From positions 42,160,001-42,224,000 of the forward strand of contig NC_043010.1 in NCBI RefSeq assembly GCF_006345805.1: a DNA stretch of 64,000 nucleotides, in the 5' to 3' direction. Below, piece by piece: positions 9,026 to 47,980 of this stretch. The stretch's first letter is position 1; each line of letters starts with the position of its first letter. The notes below the pieces were generated by a model. The model was not told the origin of the DNA and ran no database searches. It saw only the letters and a program-made list of their open reading frames with translations. A program made the translations under genes and the position numbers. The stretch is from Octopus sinensis. Its lineage: Eukaryota.

Positions 9026-9050
9026 ATATATATATATATATATATATATA

Positions 9051-9261
9051 CAGGGTGTCCCAAAAAATGTATACACACTTTAGCAGCTAATAACTCATTT
9101 GATATTTTTTCTTTCCAGATGAAACCTATAGGATTTAATGATGGCAGTCAGATTAAGTTTTGAACAAAGAAAATCCATTCTAAAATGATACTGGAAGTGT
9201 GAAAATGCAGTTGAAGTGCAAAAACAGTTAAAGTATGCATACATTTTTGGGGGACACCCTG
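9051..9261 (+). mobile_element. Tc1/mariner-type MITE, copy 1
   Basis: TIR cagggtgtcccaaaaaatgtat, TA flanks; retains a transposase N-terminal remnant (MAVRLSFEQRK...). Confidence 0.9.
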
Positions 9262-9277
9262 TATATATATATATATA

Positions 9278-9487
9278 CAGGGTGTCCCAAAAAATGTATG
9301 CATACTTTAACTGATTTTGCACTTCAACTGCATTTTCACACTTCCAGTATCCTTTTAGAATGAATTTTCTTTGTTCAAAGCTTAATCTGACTGCCATCAT
9401 TAAATCCTATAGGTTTCATCTGGAAAGAAAAAATATCAAATGAGTTATCAGCTGCTAAAGTGTGTATACATTTTTTGGGACACCCTG
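9278..9487 (-). mobile_element. Tc1/mariner-type MITE, copy 2 (inverted)
   Basis: Reverse complement of copy 1 with about 6 substitutions; separated from it by (TA)8. Confidence 0.9.
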
Positions 9488-9614
9488 TATATATAAATAT
9501 ATATATAAGTGTTCACACATACATAACATTTTTATTGAAGCTAAAAGGATTTCACATAACTTTATGTTCACACCACTACAATCATCAGGTGAGAACTGAA
9601 TAAATATATATAAA

Positions 9615-17896: not shown

Positions 17897-19203
17897 GACG
17901 ATGGAGAACCCAAAAGAAACCGGAATTTTGCAATATTATTTTATTCACCTAGTTTTACATGTTTACACATTTATTGCCCTAAAAGTATTCTCCATTTGAA
18001 GCAATGCATCGGTCCAGTCGCGTTTTCCACTATTCGATGCAGCCCTAGTACCCTTGCGAAGTGATGCCTTTTAACGCCTCTGTCGTTTTATTCTTCACCT
18101 CTTACACATCTGCAAAACGTTTTCATTTAAGGGCCTTTTCCATTCCGGGGGAACAAAAGAAAGTTGCAGGGAACAAAATCCGGGTGAAAAGGTAGGGTAT
18201 GTAAAAAGGGTCAAGCCATTTTTGGTCAAAAACTGTCTCACACTCAGGGCAGTGTGCGAAGGTGCATTGTCGTAATAAAACCACCACTCTCCACTTCGCC
18301 ACTGGACAGGGCGTTTTCGTCTCACCATGTCTCACAAACGCTTCAGAACTGCCAAGTAAAATATCTGCTTAACAGTTTGACTAGGAGTAACAAATGCTGT
18401 GTGGACAATTCCTTTCGCATCGATGAAACAAATCAGCATAGTCTTGACATTGGACGACAATTAATGCGCTTTGGGAGGCCTGGTGATGTTGAATGCTTCC
18501 ATTGACTTGATTGCTGCTTCGTTTCCGAATCATAGCCATAGCACCAGGTTTCGTCACCAGTGATGACCTCCGAAGTGAGGTTCGCATCAGCTTCCAACTG
18601 TTCTTTCAGTTCACGACACGCATTCAGTCGTGACTGCTATTGATCTTCCGTGAGCCAGGAAGGCAAAAATTTTGTTACAACTCTCTTCATTCGTAATTCC
18701 TCGTTCAAAATTCTTTGGAAAGAGCTCCACGACACACCAATCATATCAACAAATTCGTCAATTGTTCGGCGAAGGTTAGTTTATGAATTTTCATGATGTT
18801 TTCATTCGTTCGGGAGGTCGACGGTCACTCCGTACGAGGTTGGTTTACAAGCGACAAGTAACCATTCCGAAAGTATAAAAACCACTCATAAACATATGCT
18901 TTGCTCATAGTAGCTTCCTTGTAACCTGTTTGAAGCATGTCAACTGTTTCGGCTACCGTTTACCTCAGCAGAAAACAGAATTTCTCGGAAGCACGCTGAT
19001 CCTTCGTTTCAGCCATCGCAAAAATCGACGAACAAAGGAGAAGCACTGCAAAATAAAGACGCACTACGTGACAGTACGACGACGCCGTTCGGCATACTGA
19101 TGCCTGAGAGTCACAGCAAGTAGCTTCTAACAGCAGAAGATTGACGTACGATGAGCTTGTCCCGCAGTGAATGTTTTTGGTTAGTTTCGTGTACCCACTC
19201 ATA
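17897..19203 (-). mobile_element. Decayed full-length mariner transposon
   Basis: Minus-strand fragments ETKDQRASEKFCFLL, ITGDETWCYGYDSETKQQSSQW, YDNAPSH and a YSPD-like motif; degenerate TIRs. Confidence 0.85.
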
Positions 19204-20309: not shown

Positions 20310-21200
20310 ACATGGTTCTCCTGGGATTTTATCTAGATGTTTCTGACATCCCTTGTTTTCTCACATACAGTTCTTGCTTTAAGATGCCATATCTTTTGTA
20401 TTTCAATTTTCAGGTCCTTATATTTACATAATTTGTCAAATTGCATTACAGATATATTTTTATCAGTTAGAGCACATACATCTATTAGTCTACATTTTTT
20501 CGTCTCTTTAATAATTATGCCTGGTGAATCAGCCTGGATCGTTCTGTCCGGTGTTGACTGGAAAACCTCAGAGGAGAGTGTCATTTTTGCCTTCATCGAT
20601 TGGCTCAGGATGATGTTTATATCAAGAAGCAAGAGTGCTGATTTTGTAGTGTTTACATATTTTCCAATGTAAATACTGTCCTACCCAACAGTGACGATTT
20701 TTGTATTCGTTTGGTGTCAGCACAGGACATCCCGTTTCATCAAATATGTTGCAAAATCTGCTTTTAGGGTCAGAACCGTTTTGGAGAATGTCAGCCTGGT
20801 ACTTTCTGGTGAGCAAGCTTTGATCTTGAGCTGCCAATATGAAATCTTCAGTATCTGCTTTCAGTTCTGAACTTCTCAGCCACTGATGGGTTGATGCTTG
20901 GTCTAAATCAACATTTCGACTTCGAAGAATATATTGTCCATGCAGAGGCTTCTGGAACCACCACTCCTAAATTTGTTTCTGTCCTTTCTTTTCTGCAAGC
21001 TGCGTGATTCATTTTGCTTGTTTGGTGGCGGTGGTTTCAGGTTCTTGATTTAATTCAGGGTTCCCTAGCGAGTTTGCAAGCTTCATTGTAACTTTTTGCT
21101 GCTTTTGTTTTCACACAGTCCATAGTATCCAATCCTCTGTTCTAGATAAGTACATGTTCGTAGATTTTTAGTAATTTTCTTGTCATCCTGTACAAATATA
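20310..21200 (-). pseudogene. R4/Dong-like LINE 3' ORF (zinc knuckle + RLE)
   Basis: AAQDQSLLTRKYQ...SRFC...GCPVL..EYKNRH..VGQYLHWKICKHY, then TDRTIQADSPGIII...LIDV...KYKDLKIEIQKIW. Confidence 0.85.
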
Positions 21201-26692: not shown

Positions 26693-27092
26693 CTCTTTTT
26701 ACTCTTTTACTTGTTTCAGTCATTTGACTGTGACCATGCTGGAGCACCGCCTTTTTTTACTCGAACAAATCGACCCCAGGACTTATTCTTTGTAAGCCTA
26801 GTACTTATTTTATCGGCCTCTTTTGCCGCACCGCTAAGTTACGGGGACGTAAACACACCAGCATCGGGACAAACACAGATACACAGACATACACGCACAC
26901 ATACACACATATATATATACATATATATACGACGGGCTTCTTTCAGTTTCCGTTTACCAAATCCACTCACAAGGCTTTGGTCGGCCTGAGGCTATAGCAG
27001 AAGACACTTGCCCAAGGTGCCACGCAGTGCGACTGAACCCGGAACCATGTGGTTCGTAAGCAAGCTACTTACCACACAGCCACTCCTACGCC
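26693..27092 (-). mobile_element. SINE family A, near full-length
   Basis: tRNA-like head, ccttgggcaagtgtctt, internal microsatellite and A-rich tail. Confidence 0.9.
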
Positions 27093-32106: not shown

Positions 32107-32308
32107 GGCGTAGGAGTAGCTGTGTGGTAAGTAGCTTGCTTACCAACCACATGGTTTCGGGTTCAGTCCCACTGCATGGCACCTTGAGCAAAGTGTCTTC
32201 TACTATAGCCTCGGGCCGACCAAAGCCTTGTGAGTGGATATGGTAGACGGAAACTGAAAGAAGCCCGTCGTATGTATGTATATATATGTGTGTGTGTGTG
32301 TGTGTGTA

Positions 32309-33883: not shown

Positions 33884-33900
33884 ATATATATATATATACA

Positions 33901-34062
33901 CGCCGGGCTTCTTTCAGTTTCCGTCTACCAAATCCACTCAGAAAGATTTGGTCGGCCCTAGTCTATAGTAGAAGACACTTGCCCAAGGTATCACACAGTT
34001 GGACTGAACCTGGAACCATATGGTTGTGAAGCAAGCTTCTTACCACACAACCGCTCCTGCGG
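33901..34062 (-). mobile_element. SINE family A 5' half
   Basis: Similar to the reverse complement of 32107-32270. Confidence 0.85.
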
Positions 34063-36033: not shown

Positions 36034-36044
36034 ATGTATGTGTG

Positions 36045-36312
36045 TGCAATAATTATAATGATAGAATATATGGAAACTAGTACATTCTCAAAATTGAGTT
36101 CTTTTTATTTAACGGTATGTCATACGGCATATTTTCATTGCTACTACGATCTACACGTGTTTCTGTTGCACAGAGTATGAGCATGTGCATATGCGACCGG
36201 GAATAATTTTCTCTGCAATGAAAATATGCTGTATGACATACCGTGTAAAAAAAAGGAAATAAATCTTAAATATGTACCAGTTTCCATATCCTTTATCACT
36301 ATGTTTATTGCA
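36045..36312. mobile_element. Foldback MITE (about 97-bp imperfect arms)
   Basis: 36112-36141 matches the reverse complement of 36215-36244 (1 mismatch); outer similarity extends to about 36045/36312. Confidence 0.7.
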
Positions 36313-37074
36313 AATATACACTCCAGATAATATTACCATCCAGTGAAGCGAACACGGAATTACCCATCGGAGAAATATACAGCATGAGTGACAACACGTA
36401 GGAGTTACAGACGTTAAATACTAATCAATGCAGTTAGCCGTAACCTGGAACATAACTGAGAGCTACCACGGTATCAGCCCGGATAATATATCCCTCTAAA
36501 CAAATATATATATATATAATATATATATATATATATACACACACACAGAAACACATAAAGTGTGAGAGAGAGAATGAGAGAAAGAAAAGGCTAATGGATA
36601 TTTTGACACATAATCATAACGAGGTGTCATTAATGGCATATCATAGATTCAGCTATCTGGATAGGATTAACTGAGAAACATCTAAGTTTTATTTAGTAAA
36701 ATCTGGCCTTTATTGCTTGAAATAATAACATGCATATCCCATGTGTAATATATTTGTATTGATATAAGGTGCTATTCTTGATTTTACCTAATATGCATTG
36801 TAAACGTTATAACTGTAATTAAAAACATCAGATGTCCAATAATCCGGTCAACCCCAAAGATTAAGAATTGTCGAAAATACTCTCAAACTGTGAAGCAGCT
36901 GTCACATAACACATAATCGCTTTCATAACGACATCAGAACTAGAAATGTATATCCTAACTACAAAATAGCTGAGAACATTTAAAATATCATTCGTAGCAG
37001 ACGTTCTCTCGACATCGTTCACACACGCCTGACACGGGCTCCGAAGTTACAGCCCGAGTTGTTATCTATAATCC

Positions 37075-37462
37075 TGGGTGAATGTAGCAAGGATGACGAA
37101 GCCACCTTGAGCATAATCCTATGAACCCGGAAAATTTAAAATAGAGGGTTACCTACTTGCAAACAAATGTGGTAACATGTAACATTATTGATCGAGGTTA
37201 CCGTAGTCTTTTCCGTAGGCATTTCTTCCCATGGATAAACCTTATCTTCTTCCCCCTTTACAAATTACTTCATGACACTGTGATACACGACCCCTATTGA
37301 TCGTTTCTTTTTCTCTTTCCCTCCTTTTTTATTTTTCTTTCCCTTTTACGATCCCTTTTGATCGAAAACCTACCCCATCTTTTTTTCTCTCCCCCAAAAA
37401 GAAAAGCTCTACTTTGTAATCTGTCCCGTCTGTGTGCAGCCCTTTGTGGCTAATTAAGAAAC
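37075..37462 (+). mobile_element. LINE 3' end (L1/Tx1-like), with tail also at 45990-46072
   Basis: Tail aaaagctctac...tgtgtgcagccc...taaagaaac occurs at both sites; clade assignment tentative. Confidence 0.5.
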
Positions 37463-37882
37463 CTATATATAATCCTAAAAATTAAAAGTAATTCGAATTC
37501 TATGTTTTCTTGAAATAGTAAATTTCTATAGGGATTAGGATTTAAATTCCAATCTATGAAAAGTTTCCGTTCTACAATATTCTTAAAGGAACGAAAAATA
37601 TATCCAACAACTCCAGCTAATACAAACGAGCCAAGTTAGTGTAAAAGACTAACTGGCATCTTTTGTCAAGAGAACCGGTGAGAGTCAGATCGCTGATGTT
37701 AGTTGTGCACTCCACTGTCGTTATTTGATTGCTGTTATTCTGTGCGTCTATGCGTTATAACTCTGCTTGCCTGCGTACTTATACATCGCTCGCATTTTTC
37801 GTCATAAAAATTATATAAAAATACATAAAAAATATATAAAAATATATAAAATCTTCTTGGGACATAACATAGAAAGCATGTT

Positions 37883-45830: not shown

Positions 45831-46110
45831 ACTAAGTAACTATAAGAAATATTATTGCATTAAATATTTATCATTGAAATGACAATAATGTATATGTATG
45901 TATATATGTATGTATGTATGTATTATCTATCAATCTATCTATCTTTTTTTATTTTTTTTTTGTTGTTTTTTTTTGTTTTTTTTTTGTTGTTTTTTTCATC
46001 CCCCAAAAGAAAAGCTCTACCTTGTAACTTGTCCCATCTGTGTGCAGCCCTGTGTGGCCAATAAAGAAACTTATCTATCTATATAGCTATCTATCTATTT
46101 ATAGATACAG

Positions 46111-47067
46111 TAAAAAAGGGTAGAATTAATTAATTGTTAATCAATTCGACCAAGCAGTATTCGGTATGTAAAAAGACCATTTACGGTATATTTGAAGTAT
46201 TAATTTATAAAAATATGCTAAAGTAAAAAAATTCACTTTACCGCACACCGAACTTTTCAGAAATAGCAGCCAAAAATTTGGCTATTTCTTCAACTGCAAG
46301 TAAAGGTCTCCAGACAATCTTATATGGATGTGATCTTTCATTGTTTTTCCCTTATACCTATGTGAGTTATTTTCTGAGTATACATTGTCTGGAGACCTTT
46401 ACTTGCAGTTGAAGAAATAGCCAAATTTTTGGCTGCTATTTCTGAAAAGTTCGGTGTGCGGTAAAGTGAATTTTTTTACTTTACCATATTTTTATAAATT
46501 AATACTTCAAATATACCGTAAATGGTCTTTTTACATACTGAATACTGCTTGGTCGAATTGATTAACAATTAATTAATTCTACCCTTTTTTACTGACAATA
46601 TAATGCTTTCTCTCCAAGAATTTGAACTACAGTTTTTGCCTCTGTAGGAATGTACTACTCTATGACTCACGTGGGTGGACAGGGAGAATAATAGATCTCA
46701 TTTGTATTTTTGGATTCGCTAGTACTGGTTGTCCGGCATAGTTTGGCCGATGTTACAGATATCGGACGGGTATGTTTGATTCTTAGTATTTTCAAATCTA
46801 AATCAGAAGAAATCTCTGAGCTGATGAAGGAAAAGTGGCGTTTAACCCACGAATCCAGAAACAGGCTGTCCTCGGGTATCTTATATGGATGTGATCTTTC
46901 ATTGTTTTTCCCTTATACCCATGTGAGTTATTTTCTGAGTATACATTGTCTGGAGACCTTTACTTGCAGTTGAAGAAATAGCCAAATTTTTGGCTGCTAT
47001 TTCTGAAAAGTTCGGTGTGCGGTAAAGTGAATTTTTTTACTTTACCATATTTTTATAAATTAATACT
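46111..47067 (+). mobile_element. Non-autonomous retrozyme/mini-Penelope insertion with 15-bp TSD
   Basis: TSD tatttatagatacag at 46096-46110 and 47068-47082; inverted arms 46108-46318 vs 46384-46594; direct repeat 46317-46507 vs 46878-47068; internal HHR. Confidence 0.85.
46816..46875 (+). ncRNA. Type-I hammerhead ribozyme, canonical core
   Basis: CUGAG CUGAUGA a GGA aaa GUGG-cguuuaac-CCAC gaa UCC a GAAA CAGGCUG UC CUCGG; predicted GUC cleavage after 46870. Confidence 0.8.
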
Positions 47068-47082
47068 TATTTATAGATACAG

Positions 47083-47114
<32 letters not shown>

Positions 47115-47189
47115 TATATATATATAAGTATATGAAAGAATGGAGTTGAACGACTAGTTAACAAATATCCTTTATATATATATATATAT

Positions 47190-47348
47190 ACGACGGGCTT
47201 CTTTCAATTTCTATCTAGCAAATCCATTCACAAGGCTTTGGACCCGAAGCAATAGTAGAAGACAATTACCCAAAGTGCCACACATTTGAGTGAACCGAAA
47301 CCATGTGGTTTAGAAACAAGCTTCATACCATATAGCCATGCCTGTGCC
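47190..47348 (-). mobile_element. SINE family A 5' half
   Basis: Similar to the reverse complement of the family A head. Confidence 0.8.
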
Positions 47349-47440: not shown

Positions 47441-47980
47441 CAAACTATTTACCACCACTCGAAAAAAAAAGCATTTAATTTAGATAGAAAATATAGACAT
47501 ATAGAGACTCTTAACGCTGTTTCTAGAATAGCCAAATATGTGGATCATTATATTGAATTAGGATTCTATAAGCTGAGTATATCGTCATCAGAGAGGGAGA
47601 GTCAGATAAATGTCAAAATGAAGAAATATCCGCCATCGAGAATGCTATTAATACGTTCCAGTTTGTCAAAATTGAAGAAAGGATCAGAGTAAAATAAATA
47701 TGCATTGTGCATGTGTTCATGGAGCTGCGTAATGCATATCTATTTTACTCTAATCCTTCTTTCATTTTTGACAAACTGGAATGTACTGATATTCTCGATT
47801 GCGGATTATTCTTCGTTTTGACATTTATCTGATTTTTCCCTCTCTGATACTCAATTTATGGAATCCTTACTCAATATCTTGATCCACATGCTTGGCTATT
47901 TTAGAAACAGCTGTAAAAATACTTTTATATGTTCAGTCTAAATTAAATGCCTTTTTTTTCGGGTGATTTCAAATGTTTTG
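47441..47980. mobile_element. Old foldback element (about 260-bp diverged arms)
   Basis: 47441-47711 resembles the reverse complement of 47726-47980. Confidence 0.75.

Follow-up and report, generated by a model that had tools for sequence, protein, structure and literature searches.

A young octopus copy of a non-coding 561-nt repeat family with a predicted Penelope-type hammerhead motif

The 64-kb window considered here (the whole stretch of 64,000 nt of octopus DNA that was analyzed) contains an insertion of recent date that belongs to a non-coding repeat family with many copies, built on a unit of 561 nt and bearing what its sequence predicts to be a Penelope-type hammerhead motif. I propose, with a little more belief than doubt, that it is a non-autonomous Penelope-like element (PLE) that borrows the reverse transcriptase (RT) and the GIY-YIG endonuclease of a partner, and that its template is a linear, terminally redundant RNA. 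The anatomy of the insertion, the family to which it belongs, and the constraint on the predicted fold of its sense strand are documented below, and the argument for the mechanism follows from them.

The insertion is bounded by a target-site duplication (TSD) whose two copies, 46096-46110 and 47068-47082, are identical at 15/15 positions, can be extended on neither side, and enclose 957 bp. On both strands of the window, the 15-mer occurs at just these two sites. Between them lies a direct repeat (46317-46507 against 46878-47068, matching at 190/191 positions with a spacing of 561 bp) and, adjoining it head to head on the 5' side, an inverted, 5'-truncated copy (46384-46594, reverse-complemented, matches 46108-46318 at 209/211). 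The original prediction of a 15-bp TSD around some 960 bp, a 211-bp inverted copy, and a 561-bp unit followed by a 191-bp repeat is thus borne out by alignment. The window holds no further copy of the unit, the next best blastn match having an E value of 0.10.

The partial tandem gives the insertion direct pseudo-LTRs (pLTRs) of 191 bp, and the inverted copy reveals a one-ended extension, or tail, of 84 nt (46508-46591), a length measured on this single copy. The TSD lies within AT-rich DNA: the element went into the microsatellite tail that ends an older repeat, and (TA)n follows on the right. Microhomologies mark the joints: the TSD shares 3 nt with the outer end of the inverted arm and 1 nt with the end of the direct repeat, and 2 nt at the inversion junction are common to the inverted and direct copies. 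A partial tandem, an adjacent inverted 5'-truncated copy and a one-ended tail are the pattern reported for EN+ PLEs (PMC8557442, PMC8969392), whose insertions carry a TSD (PMC3846280).

Table 1. Features of the insertion, in positions of the 64-kb window.
Feature	Position	Strand	Basis
Left TSD, 15 bp, of which the final 3 nt are shared with the element	46096..46110	+	identical to 47068-47082
Inverted 5'-truncated copy of 46384-46591; outer end 84 nt past the direct-repeat end	46111..46318	-	209/211 over 46108-46318
5' pLTR, 191 bp, without ribozyme; start lies 7 nt beyond the equivalent of the cut site	46317..46507	+	coordinates 46878 vs 46871
Unique body, 370 bp: tail 46508-46591, then non-coding DNA ending in the predicted ribozyme	46508..46877	+	alignment, contigs, Pfam scan
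Body segment predicted to pair with the early pLTR as a long rod	46611..46707	+	fold prediction, variant test
Predicted ribozyme blocker, pairs with 46851-46860	46708..46717	+	fold prediction
Type I hammerhead motif, predicted Penelope-type variant	46816..46875	+	sequence features compared with PMC4209133
3' pLTR, 191 bp; end is the inferred reverse transcription start site	46878..47068	+	190/191 to the 5' copy
Right TSD, then a (TA)n tract	47068..47082	+	identical to left TSD

That the insertion is young, as was first supposed, is supported by the small number of differences between its repeat copies, 3 mismatches in 402 compared positions or 0.75% divergence. At the octopus rate given in PMC13282606, should that rate hold here, it is about 1 million years old (0.2-3), and any copying errors among the mismatches would make it younger still.

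Other repeats lie in the same window. The 3' end of an older repeat (45990-46078, 87% to 37380-37470) leads into the TATC/TA tail that hosts the insertion, and 370 bp to the right of the insertion is a MITE-like long imperfect fold-back (47456-47965) with nested inverted arms that are 83-86% complementary. A SINE-like repeat at 47173-47348, which I take to resemble octopus SINEs, has several copies in the window at 72-81% (26912-27082, 32119-32287, 33884-34045, and others). At 9031-9507, two short elements in TA tracts, presumably with mariner-like ends, form a near-perfect 222-bp inverted repeat, and a frame across them matches the DUF4817 helix-turn-helix with an E value of 2e-5. A further inverted-repeat element, with arms 75-90% complementary, occupies 36036-36321.

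The insert encodes nothing recognizable, in accord with the initial judgment that it has no credible open reading frame. Its longest stop-to-stop frame is 92 aa, none of the 10 frames scanned reached a Pfam cut-off, and an ORF for a PLE reverse transcriptase and GIY-YIG endonuclease is absent from those frames. A Pfam search over the 102 low-complexity-filtered frames of the window found no RT or GIY-YIG family. It did turn up a weak DDE_3 transposase match, under the curated cut-off, on the minus strand at 18098-18331, and the minus strand at 20333-20966 has decayed frames that lack a Pfam match and presumably resemble the C-terminal part of a non-LTR retrotransposon.

On the plus strand of the insert, a hammerhead core can be read in CUGAUGA (46821-46827) and GAAA (46858-46861), with the cut predicted to fall after C46870. 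Helices I, II, and III all pair on inspection: 5 bp in helix I, 3+4 bp in helix II, and 3 bp in a palindromic helix III, leaving A46828 and an extra A46857 unpaired. PLE ribozymes are described as having a long helix II, a short helix I, a palindromic helix III (15.2-16.2), and an extra base between A9 and G10.1 followed by a G10.1-C11.1 pair (PMC4209133), and the motif at the pLTR has every one of these, judged by sequence features. The extra A46857, between C11.1 and G12, is outside the feature list in the available text of that paper. A canonical type I hammerhead would have a 6-bp helix I, a 4-bp helix II, and loop-loop contacts, and the motif departs from it in its 5-bp helix I, its 3+4-bp helix II, and the additional bases that flank helix II. 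The hammerhead is predicted to be of the Penelope-type variant rather than canonical. The original prediction spoke of one canonical hammerhead; the one motif is there, but its build is Penelope-type and Rfam does not match it. No Rfam family, the hammerhead among them, reached its gathering score anywhere in the 64 kb, and a search of 46000-47200 at E up to 10 gave 10 matches, none of them a hammerhead. The best three of these, microRNA models lying on the long inverted repeat, were rejected as far below gathering.

Folding energy alone does not support the ribozyme, because the 81-nt ribozyme region folded by itself is no better than its shuffles (z -0.13) and the pairing probability of helix III in the monomer is 0.0. 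For two copies of the ribozyme, the prediction is a dimer held by helix III, at -33.4 kcal/mol against 2 x -12.7. The case for the ribozyme rests on its core sequence, its geometry, and the variants found in other copies. The two core boxes are free of every variant listed from contigs of other copies. One diverged contig, examined by eye, has a helix III pair altered on both sides, A-U to G-C, and in helix I has replaced U.G with the better pair U-A. A loose pattern for the core occurs at 9 places in the window, and the exact 25-nt ribozyme pattern had no match in metagenome and viral contigs.

The insert has only the one ribozyme motif, just upstream of the 3' 191-bp repeat, and with a single ribozyme it has no means of excising a 561-nt monomer through two self-cleavages. 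An active retrozyme is defined by tandem units and at least two complete ribozymes. What had been called a complete retrozyme is, by the definition given in the 2026 preprint (bioRxiv 2026.07.22.740005), a monomer with one ribozyme and not an active retrozyme.

The unit or part of it was found in 20 of 24 listed sequencing runs (9 studies, 4 organism labels; RNA is recorded for none of these), and in 5 of those runs half or more of the sampled words were present. Contigs from four of the 24 runs, under three organism labels, were aligned to a repeat-free rotation of the unit, 46400-46960. They cover 30/30 bins in each run, and the fraction of them that continues into sequence unlike the unit is 0.01 in run X1, 0.00 in X5, 0.01 in X8, and 0.07 in X3, which may be an RNA run. 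Contig depth is 321 to 1661 on the body vs 5 to 10 for rare junction contigs, a contrast that suggests many copies, depth itself being no copy number. The base in the window is the minority base at 8 positions in all four runs, which places the window copy in a subfamily or species of its own. Three of 24 loose ends (24 of 167) exit into TA-rich sequence near the two end sites, a weak hint that ends and targets are shared.

It might be supposed that the insertion is no more than a 5'-truncated partial tandem of an autonomous PLE, with 46592-46877 as the 3' end of that long coding element and a 561-bp period confined to this locus and perhaps a handful of descendants. Truncation at the 5' end and partial tandems are common in PLEs (PMC8557442, PMC8969392), contig depth is lowest at 46571-46665, directly after the tail end, and the loose ends seen are the 24 out of 167. 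Contigs from other copies, however, pass through the tail end and each position beyond it. When a position is called bridged if a piece has 31 letters on each side of it, the pooled runs (32 of 1387 pieces) leave none of the 287 positions of 46591-46877 unbridged, and pieces with at least 5 differences by themselves bridge 270/287, leaving 17. Single runs each leave 21 to 150 of the 287 unbridged, and no contig among the 32 of 1387 pieces spans the whole unit. One 280-nt piece with 31 differences is unbroken over 46618-46899, straight through the ribozyme. Since the pooled contigs bridge every position, the 561-nt unit is a family and not a one-off truncation. The idea that the unit is merely a pLTR lacking independent copies, on which the first account would have fallen, did not materialize, and its claim of a multi-copy family is upheld by a contiguous 561-nt unit in the contigs of other copies. 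The depth of contigs on the body, the want of any coding remnant, the near absence of continuation into unlike sequence, and a body complementary to the pLTR over about 70 nt, with variants that respect the pairing, likewise speak against a truncated autonomous element, which I consider improbable.

Loose ends in runs X5 and X8 show more diverged sisters that keep the hairpin at 46403-46443 and differ on both sides of it. The hairpin may be a signal by which the partner enzyme recognizes its RNA, or it may point the way to the autonomous partner. The pLTR also contains a splice-donor-like motif at 46923 (twin at 46362); a pattern search found no acceptor and the contigs contain no spliced joint. 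Penelope carries an intron in the corresponding region of its pLTR (PMC8557442). A signature of A-to-I editing was considered and is unsupported (15 A/G vs 13 C/T among 40 variants).

The predicted RNA of the unit is strongly self-paired. Folded as a circle, the sense strand gives -160 kcal/mol with 65% of its bases paired, z -7.5 against 60 dinucleotide shuffles (-7.8 against 15), while the antisense fold reaches z -3.3. Of 54 control stretches that qualified, 29 were run, and the 3 that fell below z -6 each have a DNA inverted repeat. In the predicted fold, the body segment 46611-46707 pairs over about 70 nt of complementarity with 46883-46956 or its 5' twin to form a long rod, within which 46662-46677/46916-46931 makes a 16-bp helix, and there are hairpins at 46405-46485 and 46534-46579. 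A 10-bp helix, 46708-46717/46851-46860, has a pairing probability of 0.80-0.99 in the circular form and in linear forms that include 46708-46717. This helix is predicted by the model to hide a strand of ribozyme helix II and part of the GAAA core.

If the fold matters to the element, then variants from other copies should avoid breaking its pairs. The 40 variants listed (of 42) comprise 21 at unpaired positions, 12 that keep a pair, and 7 that break one, where 17.1 +/- 2.7 breaks are expected (P 1e-4 to 4e-4 under base-matched, trinucleotide-matched, and one-per-site nulls). These statistics treat variants that share ancestry and are not independent events, on a fold modeled from one copy. The antisense fold serves as a control and shows no effect, with 12 pair-breaking variants vs 12.4 expected. 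The table of 40 contains no two-sided pair changes. The asymmetry between strands points to selection on the RNA, insofar as the modeled fold is right, and a highly self-paired monomer has the backing of both prediction and variant test.

The same results weigh on the view that the structure arose at the level of DNA, as a MITE-like fold-back, by recombination, or through an assembly error, and that the hammerhead is a chance resemblance. The window does contain several DNA inverted repeats, 3 of the 29 controls fold as extremely as z < -6, Rfam fails to see a hammerhead, and the loose core pattern is not rare. But a DNA-level event does not account for an exact 15-bp TSD, nor does a duplicated read account for 3 mismatches between the repeat copies, and the fold and its constraint are specific to the sense strand. 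Nor would a chance motif be expected to keep its core boxes free of variants or to undergo the two-sided change in helix III and the improvement in helix I noted above. I judge this explanation very improbable; it and the truncated autonomous element both fit the family data poorly.

I return to the proposed linear template. From the anatomy I infer the partner, each enzymatic step of a two-ended target-primed reverse transcription, and a template that is linear rather than circular. A source locus would be transcribed into an RNA of more than unit length (pLTR, body, ribozyme, pLTR); the template must have exceeded one unit. The 5' end of this RNA would fall close to, or exactly at, either a ribozyme cut site or an internal promoter. 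The RNA would fold into a long rod that turns the internal ribozyme off and presents the recognition hairpins. In AT-rich microsatellite DNA, the partner enzyme would nick the two strands 15 nt apart, and each nick would prime synthesis at one of two start sites inside the RNA, the equivalents of 46507 and 46591. A start at the pLTR end would copy 752 nt, and a start 84 nt further, at the tail end, would copy 208 nt. Head-to-head joining of the two cDNAs over the 2-nt microhomology would then yield the inverted copy, the direct 1.34-mer, and the duplicated target.

Much of this has precedent. In experiments with purified protein, an anole PLE enzyme cleaved AT-rich DNA on both strands and extended each of them. 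It began at two sites inside the RNA, downstream of the ribozyme, which define the tail, and its template was for the most part uncleaved RNA (PMC11167929). The pLTRs alone suffice for mobilization in trans (PMC3846280). Mobilization in trans by a PLE reverse transcriptase, as first suggested for this insertion, stands as the best inference, and the Penelope-type footprint supports it. Twin priming of the classical L1 kind, on a single RNA, was set aside because the inverted and direct parts overlap in sequence and do not abut.

The same family and the same kind of enzyme could also have used a different template, a circular RNA of 561 nt, as in the retrozyme model first put forward. Other loci with two ribozymes would supply it, their transcripts cleaving themselves twice and being ligated by the host, and the enzyme would have traveled 1.34 times round. 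The unit is predicted to fold well as a circle, and the predicted pairing of two ribozymes through helix III would serve the making of one. Animal retrozymes accumulate as circles (PMC7229834), circles have been proposed as PLE templates (PMC7229834, PMC4209133), and a blocked ribozyme is a feature of plant retrozyme and viroid circles. Against this, the present copy with its one ribozyme cannot make its own monomer, and a circle offers no reason for the direct copy to end 7 nt from the cut site. The chance of a start within that distance of the cut-site equivalent is about 0.03 on a circle (noticed post hoc, in one copy). The template of the protein PAc is mainly uncleaved RNA, with none of the reads stopping at its cut site (PMC11167929), 8 of 9 tested Xenopus dimers went uncleaved (bioRxiv 10.64898/2026.07.22.740005), and PLE-type ribozymes are slow (PMC4209133). 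The linear template is favored for two reasons: the direct copy stops so close to the cut-site equivalent, and the predicted blocker helix would protect the internal ribozyme from being cut. I regard the circular template as possible and on the whole unlikely. More tentative still is the fullest form of the idea, in which the family would be a viroid-like circle of RNA, 561 nt long, that is abundant and still active in this animal lineage, with a self-blocked hammerhead in the style of plant retrozymes, its fold under purifying selection across related species, and each of its dispersed copies bearing the complete Penelope footprint.

Non-LTR retrozymes are a class already published, and the element is apparently a new family of that class, though Repbase or Dfam may well name it already. 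A search of the literature, where most subscription papers lay outside coverage, found no description of such a family in cephalopods. Octopus vulgaris is reported to have 31 recently active Penelope-like families, and the word "ribozyme" does not occur in the available main text of two cephalopod repeat papers that mention Penelope. Retrozymes have been argued to be non-autonomous derivatives of PLEs, the link so far being their co-occurrence and the similarity of pLTRs (Li, Clavereau and Pollet 2026, bioRxiv 10.64898/2026.07.22.740005). As far as its available text goes, that preprint leaves the mechanism open and barely examines invertebrates; its survey, mostly of vertebrates, has units of 51-972 bp and counts solo monomers. 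A short, young, many-copy family with the whole Penelope footprint allows a test from genomes alone of linear vs circular templates, by the position of 5' ends relative to the cut site. It also maps the minimal signals in cis of a poorly understood mode of retrotransposition: two start sites, conserved hairpins, and a predicted ribozyme blocker. If the template should prove to be a circle, then the insertion would be a direct genomic record of a Penelope enzyme copying a ribozyme circle, a step proposed but unshown in the retrozyme papers, and the circle would be a minimal natural substrate for that enzyme. What the family adds to the known kind is the complete footprint, measurable selection on RNA structure, and the predicted blocker, matters of interest mainly to specialists in transposons and ribozymes.

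Among known systems, the nearest are the non-coding type I hammerhead repeats of animals, the metazoan non-LTR retrozymes, which form circles and for which PLE enzymes have been proposed (Cervera and de la Peña 2020, PMC7229834). The octopus element shares with them the lack of coding capacity, the type I hammerhead, a GC content of 35% (<50%), a TSD longer than 4 bp, a strongly self-paired predicted RNA, and the proposed mobilization by PLEs. Its 561 nt falls inside the range of the 2026 survey, yet exceeds the 150-450 bp units of invertebrate retrozymes. It differs in its arrangement, a dispersed 1.34-mer that has one ribozyme where theirs are tandem arrays, in the predicted PLE type of that ribozyme (theirs is canonical), and in being known from DNA, whereas theirs accumulate as circular RNA. 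Unlike that of most animal retrozyme circles, its ribozyme is predicted to be blocked. It displays the full PLE integration footprint, a feature that receives no analysis in the available text of PMC7229834 or of the 2026 preprint.

With EN+ PLEs (Penelope/Poseidon, Neptune) the element has in common the pLTRs, the inverted truncated copy on the 5' side, an extension at one end, and the TSD (PMC8557442, PMC3846280, PMC11167929, PMC4209133), along with an AT-rich or microsatellite target and an insertion end downstream of the ribozyme. The predicted ribozyme agrees with theirs in its long helix II, short helix I, base after A9, G10.1-C11.1 pair, and palindromic helix III, and departs from it in the additional A between C11.1 and G12. 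The element lacks an RT or GIY-YIG frame, has 561 nt rather than about 3 kb, and has a tail of 84 nt where 30-40 nt has been described. Its TSD of 15 bp is longer than the 8-10 of the Adineta examples. MRC1 and other non-autonomous Chlamys elements of Chlamydomonas, and the pLTR-flanked passengers of Adineta vaga, are similarly short non-coding or passenger DNA framed by pLTRs and moved in trans, but most Chlamys elements have no hammerheads, and the Adineta vaga cases are single captures, in contrast to the conserved, structured unit amplified here across related species.

Plant LTR retrozymes (PMC6765202, 2026 preprint) resemble the element in having terminal direct repeats around a non-coding body and a ribozyme blocked in the predicted fold by complementary sequence. 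They have a type III ribozyme in both LTRs, a 4-bp TSD, a PBS, a PPT, and Gypsy partners, whereas here the ribozyme is of type I and present once and the TSD is 15 bp. This copy, then, is neither an autonomous PLE nor, by strict tests, an active retrozyme. Its best place is among PLE-type elements, as a non-autonomous one of the retrozyme kind.
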